Virus genome (UHGV): UHGV-1737584
Source: a virus
Direction: 5' to 3' (one strand)
DNA: 15,092 bases
Shown: piece after piece, positions 2,777 to 15,092 of the stretch
How the letters are laid out: every line of letters starts with the position of its first letter
How positions within the stretch are numbered: position 1 is the first letter of the stretch
Notes under the pieces: generated by a model
The model's database searches: none
Told to the model about the DNA's origin: nothing
The model's input: only the letters and a program-made list of their open reading frames with translations
Made by a program: the position numbers and the translations under genes

Positions 2777-4206
2777 TCCTCCTCATACGAAATATTAAAG
2801 GTGGAGTTTTCTGTATCCAGATAAACGAAATCGTAAAAGCCGTTGGACTCATTCCACTCGACAAATTCCAGATAAAAGTCGCGGAAATAACCCAGCGTTT
2901 CGATAAATGCCCAAACGTCTTTTTTCTTAATCAGGATGTACTTGCCGACACGGTTCGGATCAAAGAAAGTTGAGTCACGCCCAAATTTTGTTTCCAGTGC
3001 CGACTTCAGCTCATCAGTCACGTTCTCAATGGTCAGGCTTGCCGATATCCGCCCGGTGATGGTGATCTTAAAGGGTAGTTTTCTGACCTCTTTATACGAG
3101 AATTTCTTGTTCAACTCATTCGGCACCTTCTTAAAGGCAGCCAGGATCATTTCTTCAAGCTCTGACTGGCTTTTATTTGGATGCCACCCTGAAATAAATA
3201 TCTTATTGATATTCCGAACATTATAAGCACCATCTAATTTCTCTTGCTGGCCTTCGCCCCATGCCTTTACCCAGGACAGTCCCGGGATGTTACGCACCAG
3301 AAAATACGTATAGTCCCCGCCCCATACGACCTGATCATCATAGGCAAGGTAATATTGTGCACGGTTACGTGTGATCTCCGTTGTTTCGGCATCGGTACCT
3401 GCGGTTATAGGTGTCATTGTCTTAACTGAAATCAAATTAGCTAAATTAGCCGCAGAATCGACAGGCGTCAGGTTTTGGCCAGCAACCAGGGTTATATCGC
3501 CGTTGGTGCACCATACCTTAAGCGTAATGATCGAGCCTTCTGGCGGTATTTGCCCAATTAGCCCATCACCGAATCGAACCCCCAACTGCTCAGATGGTTT
3601 ATAAAACTCAACGTAGACCTGGCTTTTACTACCGGCTAACCGGAACATAGTGCTGGAAGACCACTGCGTGGTCTTACCATCGGTCGTCACGAATACTTCC
3701 AGCTTATAGCAGACAGCAGTAAGAGCCTTTGATAACACGACTTCCAGAAATTCTTTAGCTGCCGTAACGGTATATGTCACCTCCTGGATTTCCAACTGCG
3801 CCACTTCTACCGTACCGGTGCCGTCAACCAACCTGCATACATCCATAGTCATGTAAGGGTACTGGTCGTCAGATATTAAAGGCATGTTTTTGGGGATTAC
3901 CGCTGGGGCATCTTCACTTGTGGCGGTGATCTCAATCATCCCCGATGACGGTGTTGGCTTGGTACCAACGTAACTATTCGTTTCTGCCGCTGCCAGGATA
4001 GAGGAACGCCGCGTCGCGGTCGATATAAAGCCTTCAGCCAGCGCCGCATCGGCATACTGAAAGCACCTGTAGACAATCTGGGTAATAAACAATGTCAGCA
4101 TCGAGACAAATTGAGAGCCGACAAACTTCGACCAGAATGAGTCTTTCTCGACAAGCTCTTCAAACTCTGCACGAATACTGTCTTTAGTCGGTGTTGTTTT
4201 ACTCAT
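2773..4206 (-). CDS. 477-aa putative baseplate protein (baseplate J-like size class)
   Basis: Complete ORF coupled by 4-bp overlaps to both neighbours (4203-4206 and 2773-2776). Size and position between a small wedge-like gene and the fibre-proximal genes fit a baseplate component (P1 bplA by position); not verified by motif. Confidence 0.6.
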   Translation of the reverse strand: MSKTTPTKDSIRAEFEELVEKDSFWSKFVGSQFVSMLTLFITQIVYRCFQYADAALAEGFISTATRRSSILAAAETNSYVGTKPTPSSGMIEITATSEDAPAVIPKNMPLISDDQYPYMTMDVCRLVDGTGTVEVAQLEIQEVTYTVTAAKEFLEVVLSKALTAVCYKLEVFVTTDGKTTQWSSSTMFRLAGSKSQVYVEFYKPSEQLGVRFGDGLIGQIPPEGSIITLKVWCTNGDITLVAGQNLTPVDSAANLANLISVKTMTPITAGTDAETTEITRNRAQYYLAYDDQVVWGGDYTYFLVRNIPGLSWVKAWGEGQQEKLDGAYNVRNINKIFISGWHPNKSQSELEEMILAAFKKVPNELNKKFSYKEVRKLPFKITITGRISASLTIENVTDELKSALETKFGRDSTFFDPNRVGKYILIKKKDVWAFIETLGYFRDFYLEFVEWNESNGFYDFVYLDTENSTFNISYEEE

Positions 4207-4562
4207 AGCACCACGTCCTGTGTGATAGTTATATCCCTGATACGAATGGATATTTTCAACTTATCAAAAGCATCTCCCTCGGCTACTGACAAGCCAGAAA
4301 TCGGTATGTCAGGTAAATCTACCGTCAGTTTTTGCAACAGCATTGCCTCAACCGCAATTTGAACATGCGACAAGTTGGTCGGTTCGTGTTTAAACTGCGG
4401 TAAAACATTGCCCCATGACGGATCTCCGTATACCTCACCCTGATAAGTGTTTAGCCACTCATATAAACGAGCGCCCCAGGCCTCCTCCTGGGACTCATAC
4501 GTTTTTACGCCGGATAACTCCAGCGTCAGCAAAGGATCAATTTCGTTATTGTTGGCCATCAA
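4203..4562 (-). CDS. 119-aa small structural protein, possibly baseplate wedge (gp25/W-like size class)
   Basis: Complete ORF; start overlaps the stop of the Sit-like gene (4559-4562) and its stop overlaps the next start. Assignment by size and synteny only (P1 pmgA by position). Confidence 0.5.
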   Translation of the reverse strand: MMANNNEIDPLLTLELSGVKTYESQEEAWGARLYEWLNTYQGEVYGDPSWGNVLPQFKHEPTNLSHVQIAVEAMLLQKLTVDLPDIPISGLSVAEGDAFDKLKISIRIRDITITQDVVL

Positions 4563-7500
4563 TCAACTCTCGCGTAGTCATTCATCAACGGATCATCAAT
4601 TGACAGTGGTACCGTGCGCATAACGCCCGGCTGAGGCGTGCTGACCTTTACGACAGTTCCCTGGCCTTTCGCCGAGTCTTTGGTGTGCTCTTCAATCCTG
4701 GCAAGCAATGAGGTCATCTGCGCAAACAGCCGCTTCGTTTCACCATCAAGTGAAACGGTATTATCAGCCAACTGCATTGTCGGCTTGGCACCGGAGCCAC
4801 CAAGGTCACTAATAACCTGTCCGTCTATCTGCATACGACCGGTTGGTTGCTGCAAATCGTTGGCGGCAGTCGTCACCTGGGACGTGGAGGCTGGTTCAGG
4901 CGCATTATTTTTCCGCATCCCCGGCGAGTTGCGGAGTTTATCGAATAGTCCATCAATCCCCATTTGTGCGCCGAGCTGGTCAAAGTAACTTGAGTTGTTG
5001 GCCACCGGACGCGCTTCTTCAACTGGCATCGGGGTATCAACATACACATTACCAGCTGCTGTTGCGGTCCCCTTCCCTCGTGCACGTTCTTCTAGCGTTC
5101 CCTGAACGACTTCCCGACGCATCCCCCGGCCATTCATGAATTTGTTGACCAGATCGTTAACGCCAACAGCATTGCCGATTTTGTCGACCAGACCGCCTTT
5201 CTCAAACGGGCTATCACCAGGGGTAAACGCCAAGCCAGGGGTAAACGCCAAGCCAGGGGTAAACGCCAAGCCAGTATACTGATCGATAACGGCGTTATCA
5301 GGCAGTGGTCCCCTCACTCCATATTGCGCCCCACCCTGTGCTCCTGCCCCAGGTGTATAGATTTCACCACCTAAATAGCGAGCACGATGAGTATTGACCT
5401 TGATCGCGTACTCACGGTTTTCCTTCGATAAGTCACCGGTGCCTTTTTTCCACTTATTAATAGTGCCAAACCCAGCGTTATATGCAGTGATGGCCTCGTT
5501 TAAGTCTCCATTGGCTTGCTTCAGATACTTGCTCATGAGAAGAGCCGCAGCTTCTGCCGATTTCACAGGATCAAACGATTCACCTTCAGCTAAGCCAGTC
5601 TCTTCACGAGCAATGCCCGTGAACTGAAACATTCCTAGAGCACCAGTTTGGGATTTTGCGTATGGATTACCACCAGATTCAGTTGCAGCAATCGCGTAAA
5701 GAGTGCCTTCAGGAAGACCATATTTATTCTCTAGTTCAGCAAAATACGGAGCTAACTTATCGAGATTTGCCTTACCTTCAGCGCCAAGGCTTCCGACTTT
5801 TACATCTAAGTTGCCATTATTGTAGGTATCAGCAGCTTTCTGAATGTCATTCCCAGTGCCGGTGGTATTACGCGACGATGATGACGAGCTATTTTGACCA
5901 ATAGCTTTATCAATTTTCTGCAACGCGCGATTGCCCGTTTCTACGGCATTTGCATTGATAATCTGATTGGCAGTTTGTTTAACTGTTTTATTGCTATCTT
6001 TCGCTGTGTCCAGTGCCGCATTTATCACGCGGGTAGCAATATTACTCTGTTTGGCATCGGATTCAGTTTTAGAATTAGACGTCTCCTGGTGGCTATTAAC
6101 CGGAGCTTTTAACTCTGGAGTGATTTCTTTCGCATTAGCCTCGCCGATCGGATTGGGTATTTTTGATACAATCATTGCCGCAGGGGTATTTTTAACGGCA
6201 TCAACCGCTGCATCTAATGCTTTACCGGGTAAATTTTTAACCCCATCCCAAATATTACCAGCCGCCTCTTTAATGTGTTTCCCTGGGTTCTTAATGAAAT
6301 CAATTGCACTATCAATTGCATCACTGAAAACCTGTTTCAGGTTATCGACAGTAAAGAAGTCTTTGATGGCATCCAGCTTTTCAAGCAGCTTATTAGATGT
6401 ATCGCTAAACCATGCTGAAACAGCATCACCAATCTTTGCTGTGTAATCATCGAACTTGGTAGAAATCGTGTCGCCAAGGTTAGAAATATATGTTTCTAAG
6501 TTGGTAATCCCACTATCAATGGCCTGGGCAATACTTTCCGTCGAAAATGATTGCAACATATTGCCGATATCCTCAAATCCAAGTGATTTGAGAACCTCAC
6601 CAATGGCGCTGCTAATACCAGATACAAGCCCCCCCATATCAAGAACATTAGCTAACGTATAAGCGGCTTTTTGCTGGAATGATGGATCTTGTCCTGATTT
6701 AAGCCCAAACGCTCGACGTTGCGCTTCTGTATCATTCCAACCGGTTACCGCATCATAAATACCTCCAGCCACTGTGCCGACCAGGGGAATTGCGCGTAAC
6801 GCCCCTTTACCAACTGCCTTTAATCCAAGTTTACCTGCTGCCCGGGCAGCCAAATCTCCGCCTTCATGGGCGAGAGTCTTCTTGCCACCACCGCGTAGCA
6901 TTCCTACAAGTTTCTTTGCCCCCAGAGCGCCAAAAGCGAGTGCTCCAGCTTTTTTCAGCATGCCACGCCCCATTAACAACGACGCGACGCCACCGGCCCC
7001 CTTCCCTAACAGGCTAAATAATTTGGACAGCAAGCCGCCCTTCTTTTTCCCGGTGTTTTTGGCTATCTGATCAAGGGCGCTGAGAATCTTGTCATTGCCC
7101 TCTTTAATTTCGCTGGTCTGCTCCTGAAGTTCCTGAACCGTCCGTTTTTGGGTGTTAACCTGAACGACATCGGCACTATTTTGCGATTTACGCCTAAAAA
7201 AACCTTTTCTACGGCTGTTATCGTCATTGCCACGAATCACATCGGCAATAGACTTTCTGGCACCATTAAGCGATCCACCAACTTCTTTTGATATCCCGCC
7301 AAGCTCCTTCCCTGCGGCCCACAATGGACCAGCAACGGCATAACCTAACGCATCGACGGCACGAGTCTCTGAAGGGTTACCTATGCCTTCAGCTACTTTT
7401 GACAGTTTTTTTAATAAACCTGATTCAGCATTTAGACGCTCATCATCCTCTTTGCGCCTGTCCTTTTCAGCACGTTCAGCACGGGCATCTTCCGCTGCGG

Positions 7501-7987
7501 CCTTACTCCCTGACTTTCCAATAAAACGACCACGCGCATCGCGTTGGTTTTGGCTTTTTTGCGCACCGTCTTTTTGACCGAACATTTCGCGAGCGTGTTC
7601 GGCTGCTTCGGTCCGTTGCGCCTTTACATCTTCTGTTATAGCCTTCTTGCGTCGTTTTTTACCCTTTCGCGTAGTTGATTTGGCCTGCGGTTCCTGTAGA
7701 GCAACATCCTCCTGAACTACACGAGAAACGTCCCCTAAATTAAGCCGTTTCATTGCCTCAACAATAGGGTCCACTGATGGCGCATTGGCCACAAAGTCTG
7801 GCTGGGAATTTTCGATTGTGCGATTTAATGCCGACACACTGCGAGAGACAGGATCAACTGTAGCAACTCGCCCCCCTTTCAAATCTTCAACGGCTTCCCG
7901 AATACCTGCAAGCTCTTCCAGCTCTTTTGCGCTGGCGGTTTCAACCGTCCTTATCACATCGTCAATGTTGGCGTTTTTTCTTTCCAT
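4559..7987 (-). CDS. sit: Structural injection transglycosylase / tape-measure-like protein, 1142 aa, with soluble lytic transglycosylase (SLT) domain
   Basis: Longest ORF in window. Contains GLPEGTLYAIAATESGGNPYAKSQTGALGMFQFTGIARE (aa ~760-800), the family-1 lytic transglycosylase motif with catalytic Glu-Ser (Glu codon at complement 5678-5680). N-terminal part is K/R/E-rich, followed by a Gly/Ala-rich hydrophobic glycine-zipper segment (aa ~300-420). P1 Sit is about 1140 aa as I recall. Confidence 0.9.
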   Translation of the reverse strand: MERKNANIDDVIRTVETASAKELEELAGIREAVEDLKGGRVATVDPVSRSVSALNRTIENSQPDFVANAPSVDPIVEAMKRLNLGDVSRVVQEDVALQEPQAKSTTRKGKKRRKKAITEDVKAQRTEAAEHAREMFGQKDGAQKSQNQRDARGRFIGKSGSKAAAEDARAERAEKDRRKEDDERLNAESGLLKKLSKVAEGIGNPSETRAVDALGYAVAGPLWAAGKELGGISKEVGGSLNGARKSIADVIRGNDDNSRRKGFFRRKSQNSADVVQVNTQKRTVQELQEQTSEIKEGNDKILSALDQIAKNTGKKKGGLLSKLFSLLGKGAGGVASLLMGRGMLKKAGALAFGALGAKKLVGMLRGGGKKTLAHEGGDLAARAAGKLGLKAVGKGALRAIPLVGTVAGGIYDAVTGWNDTEAQRRAFGLKSGQDPSFQQKAAYTLANVLDMGGLVSGISSAIGEVLKSLGFEDIGNMLQSFSTESIAQAIDSGITNLETYISNLGDTISTKFDDYTAKIGDAVSAWFSDTSNKLLEKLDAIKDFFTVDNLKQVFSDAIDSAIDFIKNPGKHIKEAAGNIWDGVKNLPGKALDAAVDAVKNTPAAMIVSKIPNPIGEANAKEITPELKAPVNSHQETSNSKTESDAKQSNIATRVINAALDTAKDSNKTVKQTANQIINANAVETGNRALQKIDKAIGQNSSSSSSRNTTGTGNDIQKAADTYNNGNLDVKVGSLGAEGKANLDKLAPYFAELENKYGLPEGTLYAIAATESGGNPYAKSQTGALGMFQFTGIAREETGLAEGESFDPVKSAEAAALLMSKYLKQANGDLNEAITAYNAGFGTINKWKKGTGDLSKENREYAIKVNTHRARYLGGEIYTPGAGAQGGAQYGVRGPLPDNAVIDQYTGLAFTPGLAFTPGLAFTPGDSPFEKGGLVDKIGNAVGVNDLVNKFMNGRGMRREVVQGTLEERARGKGTATAAGNVYVDTPMPVEEARPVANNSSYFDQLGAQMGIDGLFDKLRNSPGMRKNNAPEPASTSQVTTAANDLQQPTGRMQIDGQVISDLGGSGAKPTMQLADNTVSLDGETKRLFAQMTSLLARIEEHTKDSAKGQGTVVKVSTPQPGVMRTVPLSIDDPLMNDYARVD
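5217..5274 (-). repeat. Perfect tandem repeat, 3.2 copies of an 18-bp unit (CCAGGGGTAAACGCCAAG), encoding (LAFTPG)x3 in the Sit-like protein
   Basis: Read directly: copies at 5217-5234, 5235-5252, 5253-5270 plus a partial CCAG. In frame; translates to TGLAFTPGLAFTPGLAFTPG just C-terminal of the SLT domain. Confidence 0.95.
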
Positions 7988-8068: not shown

Positions 8069-8950
8069 TCAGCGTCCTGAATCGGTATACCCCCATACAA
8101 AACCAGGTTGGACACTAAGGTCTGATAGCTTTTCAATCCCCACCTGTGGAATGAAGTCGATAGCCCGAAAGGGCACCCACAGACGGGTATACGCACCCTC
8201 TGTGGACTCCTTTTTATCCTGATTTGGGCATTTATGCGGCGGGAGACGAAGACGCATTTCGCCTTTATCGATGTAGCACGGTAAACCATGTTCGAGCTTT
8301 TCATGAGCCAGTCGGATGTGTGCCGCCAGCTTCATAAATTCAGTATCAATGGCCATCCGTTTAATCGTTTCATAACGACGCTCGGCCTGATCTTCACGAG
8401 TACCGCTAACATCGTTATAAAGCTCACACTGATAAGCGAATTCCCAAAAACGCAAATCAACGATCGCTTCTTTGAATTCCGCGTCGTCTTCAGGTGGCAA
8501 TGCTGCACGGCGCATCTCCAGCATTTCCATTGCCCAACCATCAAGCGGCACGATACGCCATTGATAAGGTACTCCCTCTACAGACACCTCAATATCGTCA
8601 ATGAAAGGTTCCACTTCCAGGACCTGGATATCTTCAGCCAGAGCATTCATATCGCAATCGTAATAATGCTCTTTACCGCAATGTTTACAGGTGTAGGTGA
8701 ATGTCTCGACCGGTGTTTCACGGGAGCCGGTAAATATCCACCATAACGCGGTAATCCGGTCCTGCGCCGTCCATGTCAGGGGATCATGTTTCGCGGGTTC
8801 AGCCAGCAAGGCTTTTAAATACGCCGTTGTCTGTTGTTCTTGTTCCTCCGGTGTTATCGAGTTGAAACGCATCGCATCAGCAATATTTGGCTGACGGAAC
8901 TGGATCAATTCAGTTGGCCGCGATGGTAGCGGGAAAAGGGGTAAAAGCAT
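8069..8950 (-). CDS. 293-aa putative morphogenetic protein with a Cys cluster (C-x2-C-x7-C)
   Basis: Complete ORF on the tail-operon strand, 81 bp upstream of sit. Contains TCKHCGKEHYYDCD (Cys 88, 91, 99) plus Cys 175, 225, 241. Function unknown (P1 pmgB by position). Confidence 0.6.
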   Translation of the reverse strand: MLLPLFPLPSRPTELIQFRQPNIADAMRFNSITPEEQEQQTTAYLKALLAEPAKHDPLTWTAQDRITALWWIFTGSRETPVETFTYTCKHCGKEHYYDCDMNALAEDIQVLEVEPFIDDIEVSVEGVPYQWRIVPLDGWAMEMLEMRRAALPPEDDAEFKEAIVDLRFWEFAYQCELYNDVSGTREDQAERRYETIKRMAIDTEFMKLAAHIRLAHEKLEHGLPCYIDKGEMRLRLPPHKCPNQDKKESTEGAYTRLWVPFRAIDFIPQVGIEKLSDLSVQPGFVWGYTDSGR

Positions 8951-8964
8951 CCTTGCTCCTTAAT

Positions 8965-9576
8965 TCAAAGAGAAAAACTAAAGCCCAGAAGGGAAGCCAA
9001 AGAACTTGAGGATTGGTTAAACGTGCTGTGCAATGCGAAGGTCATTGGGAATGACTTAAATTCCGTAACCTGATCCCGCGCATAGGTGACATCGCCGGTA
9101 GTGACCGGGAATACCGTCATCTCATTTTCCAGTTTGGTTAAACCGGAGGACAGCAACCGATAAATACGCACATTGAGCAAATATTTAGACGGTATATTCC
9201 CGGTACCGTCCGGATTGATCACCCGACTTTTTGCCGTCTTAAACCAGTCCAAAACGAGGCCATCAACGGTATCCCTGACCATCATTGTTATCTGCCCAGG
9301 CGAACGCTCCGTTGGTTGAAGGATATTCCCTCCGCCGATTTTAATCGTTTCATATTCGATGCTGTAATCGTGGTAGGTAATGTCTTTGGCAAAGAAGTCT
9401 GCCCCCTCCAGTCCATCAACTTCGACAGAGAACTGCCATCCTTGCGCGAACAGCATTTTGTTCATGATGATTGACGTCAGCTTACCAACTTCCCGCTCAC
9501 CAACGCCGGAGCCAAATAATGTCGTCGTTAATGCCGAAGATACATAAGACTTTACTGAAGCAACATTAAGCCCCAT
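8965..9576 (-). CDS. 203-aa putative tail structural protein (possible tail tube)
   Basis: Complete ORF, 14 bp upstream of the 293-aa gene. Size (~22 kDa) and position fit a tube-type protein (P1 tub by position); no motif verified. Confidence 0.5.
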   Translation of the reverse strand: MGLNVASVKSYVSSALTTTLFGSGVGEREVGKLTSIIMNKMLFAQGWQFSVEVDGLEGADFFAKDITYHDYSIEYETIKIGGGNILQPTERSPGQITMMVRDTVDGLVLDWFKTAKSRVINPDGTGNIPSKYLLNVRIYRLLSSGLTKLENEMTVFPVTTGDVTYARDQVTEFKSFPMTFALHSTFNQSSSSLASLLGFSFSL

Positions 9577-10233: not shown

Positions 10234-10773
10234 CTACCACCAACTGCTAGCTTTCTTCTCTCTAGCTTTTCCTTCGCTTTGCAGTAAATCTTTACTTCCT
10301 GTAGAAATATTTCTATTTGCATCAGCCTCAGACTGAATTACATCTGTCTTAGCTGCTCTCTCCTTCAACTCCTGCTCTATAAAATCGTTTTCTCGCTGGA
10401 CACGAGCCGCTTTTGCTTGCAGTTCGAGTTTCATGCTTTCGAGTTGCAGCTTGCGAAGCTCATCCTCATAAGCTTGATCTCGCTTCTTGTCATTTGCTAG
10501 CTCGGCTTCTCGTTTCGCTCTACGTTCATTTTCTGCAGCAACACGCTGTTTTTCGCGTGCAGCAGCGGCAGATGCTGCTTTTTCTCTTCTAATACGTTCA
10601 GCTTGTGCTTGTTGGCGAATAAGTTCTTTTCTGGCATCCTCAGCTTGCTGCTCTTTAGCTCGCCCTTCATTTTCCGCTTGAGCAATAGCAGCAATTTGAC
10701 TTTGCAACGAGTTAGCCAAGGCAGTGCCTACACTAAACGTAGAAAAGATTAGAAATAAAATAATTTTATTCAT
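10234..10773 (-). CDS. Exported (signal-peptide) coiled-coil protein, 179 aa, TolA-like charged helical repeats
   Basis: N-terminus MNKIILFLIFSTFSVGTALA is a classic Sec signal peptide. The mature part is a highly charged Ala/Glu/Arg/Lys/Gln-rich predicted coiled coil ending in SSWW. Lies in the P1 sim-locus position. Confidence 0.75.
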   Translation of the reverse strand: MNKIILFLIFSTFSVGTALANSLQSQIAAIAQAENEGRAKEQQAEDARKELIRQQAQAERIRREKAASAAAAREKQRVAAENERRAKREAELANDKKRDQAYEDELRKLQLESMKLELQAKAARVQRENDFIEQELKERAAKTDVIQSEADANRNISTGSKDLLQSEGKAREKKASSWW

Positions 10774-10776
10774 AAA

Positions 10777-11298
10777 TTATTTCTTTTCTGGACAAGTAGC
10801 ATTTGGCTGAATTCGAGTTTCATTATCTTTAGTTGAAATAAGCACAGCAAGCCCCGTTGTAAACTGGCATGCTTTACCAACTTGAGTTGAAGTGAACACC
10901 TTAGTTCCTTCTTTATAAGTCAGTGAAACACCTTCAACAATTGTTTTATCACTAACCAAAGAACCAGCCGCTGCACCAAGAGCCGCACCACCAGTACCGC
11001 CAGCTACAGCACCCAGTGTCGATGTGCCTTTAACATTATAACCGGCAACGCCCCCAGCAACAGCTCCCAGTACCGCACCAAATGTCTGTGCCGCTTCTTT
11101 ATTAGCTTTATTATCAACTTTCACTTTAGCTGGAAGCACAGAGATAATATTGACTGTCTTTGTTTCCTGCTTCGAATTCAATTGAGCGGTATCATAAACA
11201 TCGGCAGCATAATCAGCACCGCTAGATTGACACCCAGAAAGAAGAATTGCAGATACAACAAGAGCGCATAAAGTATACTTTTTAGACATAAGAATCAT
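10777..11298 (-). CDS. Lipoprotein with glycine-zipper segment, 173 aa (or 170 aa from the second ATG at complement 11287-11289)
   Basis: Lipobox LLSGC after a KK-containing hydrophobic leader (MSKKYTLCALVVSAILLSGC). Central GAVLGAVAGGVAGY...GAVAGGTGGAALGAAAGS glycine zipper, typical of SlyB/PCP-like outer-membrane lipoproteins. Two C-terminal Cys. Only 3 bp separate it from the downstream gene. Confidence 0.8.
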   Translation of the reverse strand: MILMSKKYTLCALVVSAILLSGCQSSGADYAADVYDTAQLNSKQETKTVNIISVLPAKVKVDNKANKEAAQTFGAVLGAVAGGVAGYNVKGTSTLGAVAGGTGGAALGAAAGSLVSDKTIVEGVSLTYKEGTKVFTSTQVGKACQFTTGLAVLISTKDNETRIQPNATCPEKK

Positions 11299-11565
11299 CC
11301 CGGAAAAACAAAAACCGGCGAGAAGTTACCACGAGAACGGAAAGTAAACAAGAATACTCCCATTGACTTATATCAATTAATCAACTTTTTATAAGCTATC
11401 ACTAACTTATTGTGTATAGCTGAAAAGTCAGAGACAAGTTCACCATCTGCATTATTTCTTAAGTTAATAGTTTATTGCTAACTTAATTCATGTATCGACT
11501 ATTGATAGCCATCTTAAAGTTACAATATCCCTCTGCATTATTTTTCATCACAAATAATATATCTA

Positions 11566-11596
11566 TTGCACGACACTCATCTGCTCTAATAAATTT
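11566..11596 (+). promoter_or_regulatory. Sigma70-like promoter (TTGCAC-17-ATAAAT) overlapped by a C1-operator-like site (ATCTGCTCTAATAAATTT)
   Basis: -35 at 11566-11571, -10 at 11589-11594. The 15-mer TGCTCTAATAAATTT at 11582-11596 matches the P1 C1 operator consensus ATTGCTCTAATAAATTT as I remember it (15/17) and recurs at 13253-13267. Confidence 0.6.
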
Positions 11597-11634
11597 GTAT
11601 TTTTAAGTCGCGAATGCTATCTTTTCGCATCATA

Positions 11635-11663
11635 TTGACCTTTTAATCGTTCAGGCTTATAGT
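11635..11663 (+). promoter_or_regulatory. Near-consensus sigma70 promoter TTGACC-17 nt-TATAGT, candidate constitutive promoter for the c4-icd-ant transcript
   Basis: -35 at 11635-11640, 17-nt spacer, -10 at 11658-11663. Lies ~120 nt upstream of the structured RNA and has no operator-like sequence over it. Confidence 0.6.
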
Positions 11664-11783
11664 TTCGCCGTCGTAGCAAATTCTGCGACCGGGTTTAGCA
11701 GCCTGAATGATTGTGCGGACAGCCGCAGATATCCGATATTGCGGTATTTTTGTGTCCGTAAAACCGCGTTACGCCCAAATTAT

Positions 11784-11860
11784 GGTGGGGCGTGATGGGG
11801 AGGCTTCGGCCTGCTGGTTTCACAATCGCCAGTCTGCTAACCCCGTCACGTCCTGCCACC
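11784..11860 (+). ncRNA. c4: c4-like antisense repressor RNA, ~77 nt, structured
   Basis: Nested stems read from sequence: GGUGG (11784-11788) with CCACC (11856-11860); GUGAUGGGG (11792-11800) with CCCCGUCAC (11841-11849, one G-U); internal GGC-UUCG-GCC tetraloop hairpin (11802-11811). Single-stranded segments are complementary to downstream sites at the icd RBS. The 77-nt span matches the reported length of P1 c4, but I chose the ends knowing that length. Confidence 0.55.
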
Positions 11861-11910
11861 TGTTTAGCAGCGGGTAGCAGGTTGTTAAACCTGATTGTGA
11901 GGCCGTAACT

Positions 11911-12132
11911 ATGGTTAATGCCAATCCTTGCGCACGCCAAGAATTCATCTGGCGTTTCTATTCCTGTAAAAAACACCACTATCACTTCGTCATCGCAGCA
12001 ACAGAAGACGAAGCACGCTCTCAATTGCCTGATGGTCCCTGCATTTTTACTGCCCGTTTTTCAACTAACTCGCGCAATTCACTTAGTTACTGGAACCTCC
12101 CCTTCTCTGCCGACGTTCAGGGGGATTTATGA
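11911..12132 (+). CDS. icd: Small 73-aa protein, translationally coupled to the antirepressor gene (Icd-like)
   Basis: ORF with GAGG 8 nt upstream of its ATG; its TGA overlaps the ant start (ATGA at 12129-12132). The RBS region is complementary to the upstream RNA. The 73-aa length and position match P1 icd as I recall. Confidence 0.6.
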   Translation: MVNANPCARQEFIWRFYSCKKHHYHFVIAATEDEARSQLPDGPCIFTARFSTNSRNSLSYWNLPFSADVQGDL

Positions 12133-13172
12133 AAAAACCTCTCGTCACCCGTAATGAAATAGCCGAAGCGATCGCCCTGCATACAACCTGTATGCCGACA
12201 CGGGAGATCCCCGGCGCAATTGCCAACTATTTCATGATAACCAGACGTTTTTATACCCGAACAGATAAGGCTGTGATCAACAAGCTACTGATAGCCGAGA
12301 TCAGGGATTATTTGATTGAACAAGGACGTCTACGTTACGCAACAGTGGCAGCAGAAATGAGAAAGGAGGCACATAGAATGACCGGTAATAATTTGAATGT
12401 TGAAAAACCAGCACCTGTTGCTTCAGCTACGCCATCACCAGCTGTGAATGTTATCTCCAACACTGGAGACACAATCGACAGCCAGACACTGTTAAAGATG
12501 GTCAATGAAGCTCGTAAGTTATGTGGGGAACCAGAGGTTCGGAACAACAAATTCATCGAAAAAATACTCGACGAATTAGAAGGTGAGGACGGTTACACAA
12601 AAAGTGCAACCGTGCCGCCAGGTGGCGGTACGCCTATGGTTGTCATAACCATGACCTACAAACAAGCCCTGCGAGTCGCCGCGCGCGAGTCAAAAGCGGT
12701 CCGCCGTTCGCTGATCGACAAACTGGAAGAATTACAGCAGGCAAACTCCCCTACCCCATCGATCCCCCAGACATTACCAGAAGCCCTACGCCTGGCTGCC
12801 GAGTTAGCAGAACAGAAAATGCAGTTGGAACAACAGCTGGTGGCCGCAGCCCCTAAAGTCGATTTTGCCGACCGGGTATCAGTGGCCAATGGAATCCTGA
12901 TCGGGAACTTTGCAAAGGTCGTTGGACTTAAGCAAAACGCCCTTTTCTCATGGTTGCGCCAGAATGGCATTCTCATGGCTTTTGGAGCGCGCAAAAACGT
13001 ACCGCGCCAACAGTACATCAACGCGGGGTATTTCACGGTGAAAGAAGTGGTGCTGGATGATGAAAATGGCTACCAGATACGGCTGACGCCCCAATTAACG
13101 GGTAAAGGCCAGCAGTGGTTAACTCGCAAGCTACTTGATGCTGGTTTGTTAAAACCAGTAGCAATAGGTTAA
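12129..13172 (+). CDS. ant1: Antirepressor Ant1, 347 aa, with C-terminal ANT/KilA-C type domain
   Basis: Strong SD AGGGGG upstream of the ATG. C-terminal ~130 aa (LPEALRLAAELAEQ...GKGQQWL...LLDAG) is the phage antirepressor C-terminal domain and is paralogous to the KilA C-terminus in this window. Confidence 0.85.
   Translation: MKKPLVTRNEIAEAIALHTTCMPTREIPGAIANYFMITRRFYTRTDKAVINKLLIAEIRDYLIEQGRLRYATVAAEMRKEAHRMTGNNLNVEKPAPVASATPSPAVNVISNTGDTIDSQTLLKMVNEARKLCGEPEVRNNKFIEKILDELEGEDGYTKSATVPPGGGTPMVVITMTYKQALRVAARESKAVRRSLIDKLEELQQANSPTPSIPQTLPEALRLAAELAEQKMQLEQQLVAAAPKVDFADRVSVANGILIGNFAKVVGLKQNALFSWLRQNGILMAFGARKNVPRQQYINAGYFTVKEVVLDDENGYQIRLTPQLTGKGQQWLTRKLLDAGLLKPVAIG
12378..13172 (+). CDS. 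ant2: Nested in-frame antirepressor Ant2 (264 aa) from an internal start
   Basis: Internal in-frame ATG at 12378-12380 preceded by a consensus SD AAGGAGG at 12364-12370. P1 is known to make Ant1 and Ant2 from in-frame overlapping starts. Confidence 0.6.
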   Translation: MTGNNLNVEKPAPVASATPSPAVNVISNTGDTIDSQTLLKMVNEARKLCGEPEVRNNKFIEKILDELEGEDGYTKSATVPPGGGTPMVVITMTYKQALRVAARESKAVRRSLIDKLEELQQANSPTPSIPQTLPEALRLAAELAEQKMQLEQQLVAAAPKVDFADRVSVANGILIGNFAKVVGLKQNALFSWLRQNGILMAFGARKNVPRQQYINAGYFTVKEVVLDDENGYQIRLTPQLTGKGQQWLTRKLLDAGLLKPVAIG

Positions 13173-13184
13173 CAAAAGAAAAAA

Positions 13185-13210
13185 ACCTGCCAGCAAACTG
13201 GCAGGTTTCT
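13185..13210 (+). terminator. Hairpin terminator after ant (9-bp perfect stem ACCTGCCAG / CTGGCAGGT, loop CAAA, then TTCT)
   Basis: Read directly from sequence, 13 nt after the ant stop. The 3' U-tract is short, so termination may be partial. A-rich 5' flank could also let it act on the opposite strand. Confidence 0.55.
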
Positions 13211-13249
13211 GAGCAGATCATCCAACCCGATCTGGATCGAGTTAGAAAA

Positions 13250-13267
13250 ATTTGCTCTAATAAATTT
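13250..13267 (+). promoter_or_regulatory. Second C1-operator-like site (ATTTGCTCTAATAAATTT) in the kilA-repL promoter region
   Basis: Same 15-mer TGCTCTAATAAATTT as at 11582-11596, located 70 nt upstream of kilA. A possible -35 TTGCTC (13252-13257) and weak -10 TAAGTG (13275-13280) overlap it. Confidence 0.6.
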
Positions 13268-13336
13268 CGTTTTCTAAGTGCAAAGAATCACCATTTCGAG
13301 CTGGTGATTGAAGGTTGATGCAAATTTGGAGAAAAA

Positions 13337-14137
13337 ATGCAACAAACATTCAATGCGGATATGAATATATCAAACCTTCATCAAAATGTCGATCCTTCAA
13401 CCACTCTGCCCGTTATTTGTGGTGTTGAAATTACGACCGACCGCGCTGGCCGTTACAACCTTAATGCTCTACACAGAGCGAGCGGACTCGGTGCCCATAA
13501 AGCGCCAGCTCAATGGCTAAGAACGCTGTCAGCCAAACAGCTCATCGAAGAGCTTGAAAAAGAAACTATGCAGAATTGCATAGTTTCGTTCGAAGGCCGT
13601 GGCGGCGGCACTTTTGCCCATGAATTGCTCGCAGTGGAGTACGCAGGCTGGATTTCTCCCGCGTTTCGGCTGAAGGTAAACCAGACATTTATCGACTATC
13701 GAGCCGGAAGATTACAACCTGCTATTCCGAAGAGCCTCCCAGAAGCTCTCCGTTTGGCTGCTGACCTGGCAGAGCAAAAGCAACGGCTGGAGCAAAAAAT
13801 GCTGATGGATGCACCTAAAGTCGAATTCGCCGAACGCGTTGCTACCGCCAGCGGGGTTCTAATCGGCAACTATGCCAAAGTGCTCGGCCTGGGCCAAAAC
13901 TATCTCTTCACCTGGTTGCGTGATAACGGAATTCTGATCGCAACCGGTGAACGCAGGAACGTCCCCAAACAAGAATACATATCCCGTGGGTATTTCACCC
14001 TTAAAGAAACCGTGATCGATACAAGCAATGGAAGCAGGATTTCTTTCACGACTCGTATAACCGGCAAAGGTCAGCAGTGGCTGATGAAGCGATTGCTTGA
14101 TGCTGGTGTGCTGGTACCTGTCGCGGCAACGCGCTAA
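13337..14137 (+). CDS. kilA: KilA protein, 266 aa: N-terminal KilA-N domain plus C-terminal ANT-type domain
   Basis: SD GGAG 7 nt upstream. N-terminal region (ICGVEITTDRAGRYNLNALHRASG...) has the KilA-N DNA-binding-domain character. C-terminal ~130 aa are paralogous to Ant. The 266-aa length matches P1 KilA as I recall. Confidence 0.8.
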   Translation: MQQTFNADMNISNLHQNVDPSTTLPVICGVEITTDRAGRYNLNALHRASGLGAHKAPAQWLRTLSAKQLIEELEKETMQNCIVSFEGRGGGTFAHELLAVEYAGWISPAFRLKVNQTFIDYRAGRLQPAIPKSLPEALRLAADLAEQKQRLEQKMLMDAPKVEFAERVATASGVLIGNYAKVLGLGQNYLFTWLRDNGILIATGERRNVPKQEYISRGYFTLKETVIDTSNGSRISFTTRITGKGQQWLMKRLLDAGVLVPVAATR

Positions 14138-14166
14138 CAGACGTAGTAAGAACCACCAGCATTGTA

Positions 14167-15012
14167 ATGCTGGCTAAAGTCACTTTCCTGAGCTGTATAA
14201 CGATGAGCGATTTTACTTTTTCTGGCTATGAATTGGCCTGCTTTGTAACACACTCCGGTCTATCCCGTAGCGCCGGGCATATCCTGTCGCAATGTGCAAA
14301 TCTAGCGGCAACAACCAGTGAATACTTCATTCACAAGCCTCACCGCCTGATCGCGGCAGAAACTGGTTATAGCCAATCAACCGTCGTTCGTGCATTCCGT
14401 GAAGCTGTAAACAAAGGAATTCTGTCTGTAGAGATTGTTATCGGCGATCACCGTGAACGTCGCGCTAACCTGTACCGGTTTACACCATCCTTTTTGGCCT
14501 TTGCTCAACAAGCCAAAAATGCGCTAATTGAAAGCAAATTAAAGATCTCTTCAGCCGCAACCAAGGTTAAAGCAGTTCTCGCTAAGACATTGGCTTTATT
14601 TGATTTTTTATCCACACCCCCATGTCAAAATGATACCCCCTCCCCCTGTCAGGATGACGTGGCAATAAAGAATAAGAAGTCACAAATTAAAAAAACAAAA
14701 AGATCAGTTTCCGGCGGTGCCGAAACGACCAGCCTCAAAAAACTGACTTCATGGATCGCCGAGGCAAAAGCAAAGGCTGACAATCTGCGGTTATCCAAAA
14801 AACGCGCTCAAAAACATGAGTTCAAGCAGAAAGTAGAGGCGGCAGCGCGGAAATATGCTTACCTGAAGAACAAGCGTTCTCCTGATATTGGCGGGGTATC
14901 AAACTTCGATAATTTGCCGCATTGCATGACGGTAAACGAAGCTCTTAATGCGGTTTTAGCCAAAAATAAAGATAACGAACAATGGGGTATACCGGCAGGA
15001 TTCAGAGGGTGA
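14167..15012 (+). CDS. repL: Lytic replicon protein RepL-like, 281 aa, with HTH-like segment
   Basis: ORF immediately after kilA. Segment LIAAETGYSQSTVVRAFREAVNKGIL looks like a helix-turn-helix. Contains an internal short direct repeat and an A-rich tract. The 281-aa length matches P1 RepL as I recall. No clear SD at 14167; an in-frame alternative ATG lies at 14203. Confidence 0.7.
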   Translation: MLAKVTFLSCITMSDFTFSGYELACFVTHSGLSRSAGHILSQCANLAATTSEYFIHKPHRLIAAETGYSQSTVVRAFREAVNKGILSVEIVIGDHRERRANLYRFTPSFLAFAQQAKNALIESKLKISSAATKVKAVLAKTLALFDFLSTPPCQNDTPSPCQDDVAIKNKKSQIKKTKRSVSGGAETTSLKKLTSWIAEAKAKADNLRLSKKRAQKHEFKQKVEAAARKYAYLKNKRSPDIGGVSNFDNLPHCMTVNEALNAVLAKNKDNEQWGIPAGFRG

Positions 15013-15092
15013 TAGATTGCTCTAATCTGGAGTCACCTGGCGTTTTCAGTTTGAGGTCGGAGATGCAATCTGATTTTTTACAGTTAGCGATC

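Follow-up and report, generated by a model that had tools for sequence, protein, structure and literature searches.

The primary lysogeny repressor of the P1/P7-type phage-plasmids, C1, acts through operators that follow an asymmetric 17-mer consensus, and about 22 of them are described in P1 (PMC8546580). Op53 overlaps the promoter P53, and C1 binding there blocks kilA and repL (PMC9948254), while transcription of the c4-icd-ant operon is repressed by C1 in a control that also needs C4 RNA (PMC8198154). According to PMC9948254, Op51 and Op53 belong to the C1 binding sites characterised in the late 1980s by Eliason and Sternberg (1987) and by Velleman et al. (1987). Lambda CI with its operators OR and OL is a comparable system, since there too one repressor made by the prophage keeps lytic promoters silent, its sites overlapping their -35 or -10 elements sterically. 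However, the lambda operators are palindromic, clustered and cooperative, whereas those of C1 are asymmetric single sites, some 20 of them, dispersed; also, unlike lambda CI, C1 has two antirepressors, Coi and Ant, as antagonists and Lxc as a helper. Here we analysed a stretch of 15,092 nucleotides (nt) of the virus genome UHGV-1737584, called the window in what follows, in which one 15-mer, TGCTCTAATAAATTT, stands both ahead of c4-icd-ant and ahead of kilA-repL. Alignment and motif scores lead us to conclude, with high confidence, that the two 15-mers are the invariant parts of 17-bp operators for C1. Op51 and Op53 as such are already known, the reference genomes of P1 and P7 listing both in their annotation, and the main use of the assignment is annotation: a P1-like phage-plasmid with C1-type (immC) control, an immI of P7 type and an intact antirepressor/lytic-replicon switch. 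In E. coli and Salmonella, plasmids of this kind commonly carry resistance genes, and the assignment also bears on whether they remain inducible.

We found exactly two copies of TGCTCTAATAAATTT, both on the + strand, at 11582-11596 and 13253-13267, as the original prediction had them, and no further copy in the window when up to 3 mismatches were allowed. The second ends 69-70 nt upstream of the kilA ATG (13337), close to the 70 nt first proposed. The repeat had been presented as a 15-nt operator; the repeat was confirmed, while its extent had to be widened, the 15-mer being positions 3-17 of an asymmetric operator of 17 bp. At the positions to which the window sites align, the P1 record (AF234172) has the protein_bind features Oc4/Op51, OrepL/Op53 and Orlf/Op55, each given for 'phage repressor C1'. 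The P7 record (AF503408) labels the exact Op51 sequence of the window Op(c4) and also carries Op(rep) and Op(rap). Op53 of the window equals that of P1 over all 17 bp, while Op51, TCTGCTCTAATAAATTT, differs from the P1 allele, AATGCTCTAATAAATTT, by TC versus AA at positions 1-2 and is the same at positions 3-17. The base-for-base alignment of both sites with P1/P7 operators agrees with the earlier proposal that a single repressor of the P1 C1 type controls the two operons through an asymmetric operator at the head of each.

The motif itself gives further support. Compared with the 17-bp consensus ATTGCTCTAATAAATTT, Op51 has 2 mismatches and Op53 has 1, where 0.07 sites are expected in the window at 3 mismatches or fewer. 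A weight matrix was derived from the 20 annotated monovalent P1 operators less the homologues of the three window sites, which left 17 operators. With this matrix Op53 reaches 21.75 bits and Op51 18.76 bits, both above all of 200 window shuffles (mean of the maximum per shuffle, 12.0; highest, 17.97). The window contains only these sites, and the corresponding part of P1 likewise. A possible further operator at 7094-7110, inside sit, scored 10.45 bits, under the mean shuffle maximum, and was rejected.

A genome-wide motif scan had been proposed as a test that could refute the original prediction by returning the motif at random frequency. In Punavirus MH422554, the closest complete genome (98% identity to the window), the consensus was matched 18 times at 3 mismatches or fewer against 0.36 expected, an excess of about 50-fold. 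These matches are chiefly intergenic and lie ahead of genes that are C1-controlled in P1: ref, ssb, ban, lpa and c1/coi. The C1 protein of MH422554 is identical to P1 C1.100 at 282 of 283 residues; in relatives, c1 lies about 50 kb from immI, outside the window. Conservation was followed in a sample of 80 IMG/VR loci encoding RepL relatives. Positions 3-17 of Op51 are unchanged in 64 of 65 loci, while positions 1-2 differ among relatives (AA, TC, CC, AG, TT) and the upstream flank varies too; Op53 is the same in 80 of 82 related sequences, next to a polymorphic P53 spacer directly upstream. The 8-10 nt immediately left of Op51 are hypervariable, unlike the invariant operator, in sim-type flanks that are otherwise near-identical (e.g. 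in the relatives L008 and L010).

Phage D6 offers a comparison from outside this group, as it has c4-icd and repL with only distantly related DNA. No P1-type operator was found in D6 near c4-icd or repL, the best score being 9.2 bits. This suggests that the P1-type operator goes with the C1 type of immunity and not with the c4-icd module; as a phylogenetic footprint of the site, the comparison reaches no deeper. In D6 (2700-2730 and 3930-3990) we also observed several A+T-rich sequences containing ATTGCT ahead of repL and c4-icd, such as ATTGCTGAAATTTTTAG and AATTGCTAACATAG, which could be candidate operators of a C1-like repressor of its own.

To place the operators relative to transcription, the promoter annotation of P1 (P2c4, P1c4 and PkilA) was transferred onto the window by alignment (Table 1). 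The P51a stretch has the same sequence as in P1, and Op51 shares two bases with its -35 hexamer. The original prediction had set the first copy over the -10 of the c4-icd-ant promoter; this needs correction, as the copy overlaps the -35 of P51a, one of two promoters of the operon, and the overlap with a -10 belongs to Op53, which covers the hexamer TCTAAT of P53. In the consensus scan no + strand promoter had its -10 inside Op51, and the geometry annotated in P1 for P51a was preferred. The best candidate found by hand for a -10 in Op51, TTGCAC-N17-ATAAAT, was rejected, with only 3 of 6 matches to the -10 consensus. The hexamers and operator of P53 are those of P1, with two substitutions in the spacer, and three GATC sites occur there, one in the -35 TGGATC and the others at 13216 and 13229. 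The likeness to P1 extends to the same P51a/P51b hexamers, the same P53 -35, -10 and Dam sites and the same downstream genes. Besides the AA at positions 1-2, P1 departs from the window around Op51 by having simABC upstream and a c4 RNA with 5 substitutions.

Table 1. Operators, promoters, RNAs and genes of the immI and lytic replicon region of the window, with the evidence for each.
Feature	Position	Strand	Evidence
C1 operator Op51/Oc4, P7 allele TCTGCTCTAATAAATTT, 15/17 to consensus	11580..11596	+	Aligns with P1 protein_bind Oc4
C1-controlled promoter P51a (P2c4): -35 TTGTAT 11595-11600, -10 TATCTT 11618-11623	11595..11623	+	P1 annotation
Promoter P51b (P1c4), TTGACC-17-TATAGT, outside the operator	11635..11663	+	P1 annotation; consensus scan, 10/12 matches
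a1/b1 target sites of C4 antisense RNA, leader	11657..11709	+	Rfam RF03163, 54.6 bits
c4 antisense RNA gene, P7 specificity	11784..11860	+	Rfam RF01695, 69.6 bits at 11778-11863
icd, cell-division inhibitor	11911..12132	+	Open reading frame list; 72/73 identity to P7 Icd, 70/73 to P1 Icd
ant1 (in-frame ant2 from 12378), antirepressor inactivating C1	12129..13172	+	326/347 identity to P1 Ant1
G+C-rich terminator-like hairpin between ant and kilA	13181..13210	.	13 pairs in a terminator scan that called it for the - strand only
Promoter P53 (PkilA): -35 TGGATC 13233-13238, -10 TCTAAT 13256-13261	13233..13261	+	P1 annotation
C1 operator Op53/OrepL, TTTGCTCTAATAAATTT, 16/17 to consensus	13251..13267	+	Same as P1 OrepL and P7 Op(rep)
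kilA	13337..14137	+	264/266 identity to P1 KilA
Antisense promoter P53as (PaskilA), TCGACA-17-TATATT	13364..13392	-	P1 annotation and promoter scan, 10/12 matches
repL (initiator of lytic replication), with oriL inside the gene	14167..15012	+	275/281 identity to P1 RepL; P1 annotation
Op55/Orlf homologue ATTGCTCTAATCTGGAG, 11-nt core ATTGCTCTAAT kept	15016..15032	+	Aligned to P1 Orlf

Several points weigh against the assignment of both sites to C1. When the window was dinucleotide-shuffled 500 times, 11% of the shuffles gave at least one exact 15-mer direct-repeat pair; an exact repeat is by itself only weak evidence and the case therefore rests on the other evidence. The Op51 allele of the window, with TC at positions 1-2, scores 6 bits below the P1 allele (18.8 vs 24.8) and barely above the best shuffle, and its affinity for C1 could be lower than that of the P1 site. 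P51a and P53 match the sigma-70 consensus poorly and were missed by a simple promoter scan, so that we rely on the P1 annotation to assign them. Finally, we infer the cognate C1 repressor of this element from its relatives, c1 being outside the window.

A possible explanation of a different kind is that both copies are what is left of an ancient duplicated module, a regulatory region plus an antirepressor, and are alike by descent and not because of a common reader. Ant1 and KilA do have a C-terminal (KilAC-type) domain in common, with 49% identity in a 202-residue alignment (12738-13172 vs 13700-14137), so that both operators precede paralogous genes; a diverged DNA repeat, D3, joins the 3' ends of ant1 and kilA (13134-13162 and 14096-14124), and similarity around the 15-mers reaches about 30 nt at 83% (repeat D2). 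However, the coding paralogy has fallen to 49% protein identity and yet the 15-mer is 100% identical, which requires selection on the site, and unrelated genes elsewhere in the genome are preceded by the same motif, which is present at about 18 further places. The D2 similarity downstream of the operator is insignificant alone (p ~0.16), and the extended similarity beyond the operator was dropped as a candidate feature. Descent and function are compatible with each other, and taken as a replacement for operator function this explanation seems very improbable.

We give just as little credit to the idea that Op51 governs, mainly or additionally, the leftward genes (a lipoprotein at 10777-11298 and a membrane protein at 10234-10773, with sim in their place in P1). 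A promoter-like site on the - strand, TAGATA-17-AATAAT (11565-11537), begins 15 nt left of the operator, and in P1 the predicted -35 of PsimA is 5 nt left of Op51. These leftward promoters, however, are predictions only (9/12 match), and the literature assigns Op51 to c4-icd-ant. Moreover, the left flank has been swapped between lineages while the operator and the rightward promoters are invariant, which ties the operator to the rightward unit. That the 15-mers are chance A+T-rich repeats or plain promoter elements (-10 or UP-like) without a dedicated repressor is hardly credible: shuffled windows do yield exact 15-mer repeats, an unrelated pair exists at 8360/9340 and the motif includes the -10-like TCTAAT, but both sites top every shuffle on a matrix made from other sites, their positions are homologous to experimentally named operators, and the promoter element that they touch differs (-35 at Op51, -10 at Op53), which is unexpected of a pure promoter element.

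As C1 operators, Op51 and Op53 would most likely follow the mechanism published for P1. C1 binding, steric exclusion of RNA polymerase, the effect of Lxc and the constitutive character of P51b belong to published P1 work or to general knowledge. In the prophage state C1, encoded about 50 kb away, would occupy each operator with the help of the corepressor Lxc. On Op51 it would abut and overlap the -35 of P51a and exclude RNA polymerase, so that one of the two inputs to c4-icd-ant1/2 would be lost; P51b would stay free of C1, by which C4 antisense RNA would still be supplied and translation of icd and ant blocked. On Op53 C1 would cover the -10 of P53, turning off kilA-repL and hence lytic replication from oriL. 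Once Coi or Ant has inactivated C1, P51a and P53 would both be expected to fire, giving Ant, KilA and RepL-driven replication from oriL. As Ant antagonises C1, Op51 would close a double-negative loop. Control of kilA/repL and c4-icd-ant through C1 operators, with Lxc and antirepressors, is described in PMC9948254, PMC8198154 and PMC8546580.

By its sequence, the window is a section of a P1/P7-like phage-plasmid. As a whole it matches 800 plasmid records, chiefly from E. coli (best 98.4%; top phage and plasmid matches 98.0-98.4%), and at the DNA level positions 11000-15092 agree to 96-98% with P1, with P7 and with some 20 more P1-like phages. As MH422554 and P1 do, the window has genes for tail and baseplate on the - strand, here in its left 11.3 kb. 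The right part is made of c4-icd-ant1/2, which is the immI operon, and kilA-repL, the lytic replicon; its Icd, Ant1, KilA and RepL are 94-99% identical to the P1 proteins. The hairpin between ant and kilA is kept in P1 and sits between the two operons. On the left flank, upf50.0/upf50.5 (membrane protein and lipoprotein, 10234-11298) take the place of simABC, as in P7, and the c4 RNA shows 0 mismatches to that of P7 and 5 to that of P1. Because c4 RNA and left flank are both P7-like, the immI of the window is to be assigned to P7 specificity, combined here with a right flank that is not that of P7. In this sense, the window shares its left flank and c4 RNA with P7, together with TCTGCTCTAATAAATTT as the Op(c4) sequence, and departs from it on the right, where P7 has a P1-type flank with Op55/Op(rap) followed by rapA/rapB, and the homology of the window stops after operator position 11.

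That third position, after repL, had been described earlier as a partial match of the motif, ATTGCTCTAAT. The match is present at 15016-15026, where it begins 4 nt after repL has ended with its stop codon. It is homologous to Op55, with only the 11-nt core there and a score at background. In the aligned 17-mer ATTGCTCTAATCTGGAG, the last six bases read CTGGAG instead of the TATAAC of P1 Op55 (Orlf, ATTGCTCTAATTATAAC), and all six are non-consensus. The P1 site occupies the same place and has the same 11-nt core, with a different 3' six bases and different downstream genes. With 11 of 17 positions agreeing, the window site has too few for a consensus match, and its 6.03 bits (15.48 for P1 Orlf) are no better than 13 other window positions or the shuffles. 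We count it as real because it is homologous to P1 Op55, not by its motif score. It is most likely a remnant of Op55 with weak or no C1 binding. Even so, the CTGGAG form is the more frequent allele in the sample (about 65 of 81 loci), and 80 of 81 loci, with 5 different right flanks, have an identical core. In the lineage of the window, rlfA/rlfB of P1 are replaced by a small open reading frame for a predicted membrane protein and then by hok/sok. The small reading frame starts with an ATG at window position 15063, preceded by GGAG; this replaced region takes up 15063-15092 of the window, and its continuation is seen in the relative L003 at 45851-46433. The hok/sok toxin-antitoxin module shows, in MH422554, an Rfam sok match of 114.9 bits, and has a 51-aa Hok-like reading frame.

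The borders of homology were seen to fall in operators. Homology with reference P1 starts at 11582, position 3 of Op51, and ends at 15026, position 11 of Op55. When the whole genomes of P1 and MH422554 were compared, only 2 of the 32 borders between blocks were within 10 nt of an operator, against 0.23 expected (P ~0.02), and these two are exactly the ones that flank the immI plus lytic-replicon module. Relatives present three types of left flank and two main types of right flank, P1-type and CTGGAG-type, the latter splitting into three subtypes after 23 nt more; all types join at the same operator positions, with left and right types in all combinations. Such a pattern would be expected if recombination took place in or close to operator cores, or if selection held the operators while their neighbours were swapped, and is suggestive only. 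A tentative extension, which we consider rather unlikely, is that the cassette from Op51 through repL to the core of Op55 is an exchangeable module bordered in C1 operators, the cores possibly acting as short-homology joints and the half-site being the majority-allele scar of recombination and not a working operator. If this were true, the operator cores scattered in P1-like genomes would serve the shuffling of modules among P1-like phage-plasmids. The location of both module borders within operators and the Op55 half-site as the majority allele in the sample are the only part of this analysis that goes beyond textbook knowledge.

Other observations concern sequence context and repeats. Downstream of many operators in P1, positions 21-25 form a T-run and position 28 is a G; the columns concerned carry 0.5-0.8 bits, several of them exceeding 0.70, the 99.9th percentile of random columns. 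Both window operators show the downstream T-run (11597-11608 and 13268-13279). The T-run and the G hint at an extended operator context or at a common promoter geometry. A second exact 15-mer direct repeat, TTTAATCGTTTCATA, at 8360-8374 and 9340-9354, falls within the homologues of pmgB and tub; it is unrelated to the first, does not score like an operator and is probably of chance origin. Also, three identical 22-nt copies that overlap, one every 18 nt (period of 18 nt, CCAGGGGTAAACGCCAAG), were found at 5217-5274, within the large - strand reading frame 4559-7987 that encodes a homologue of the Sit tape-measure/transglycosylase protein.

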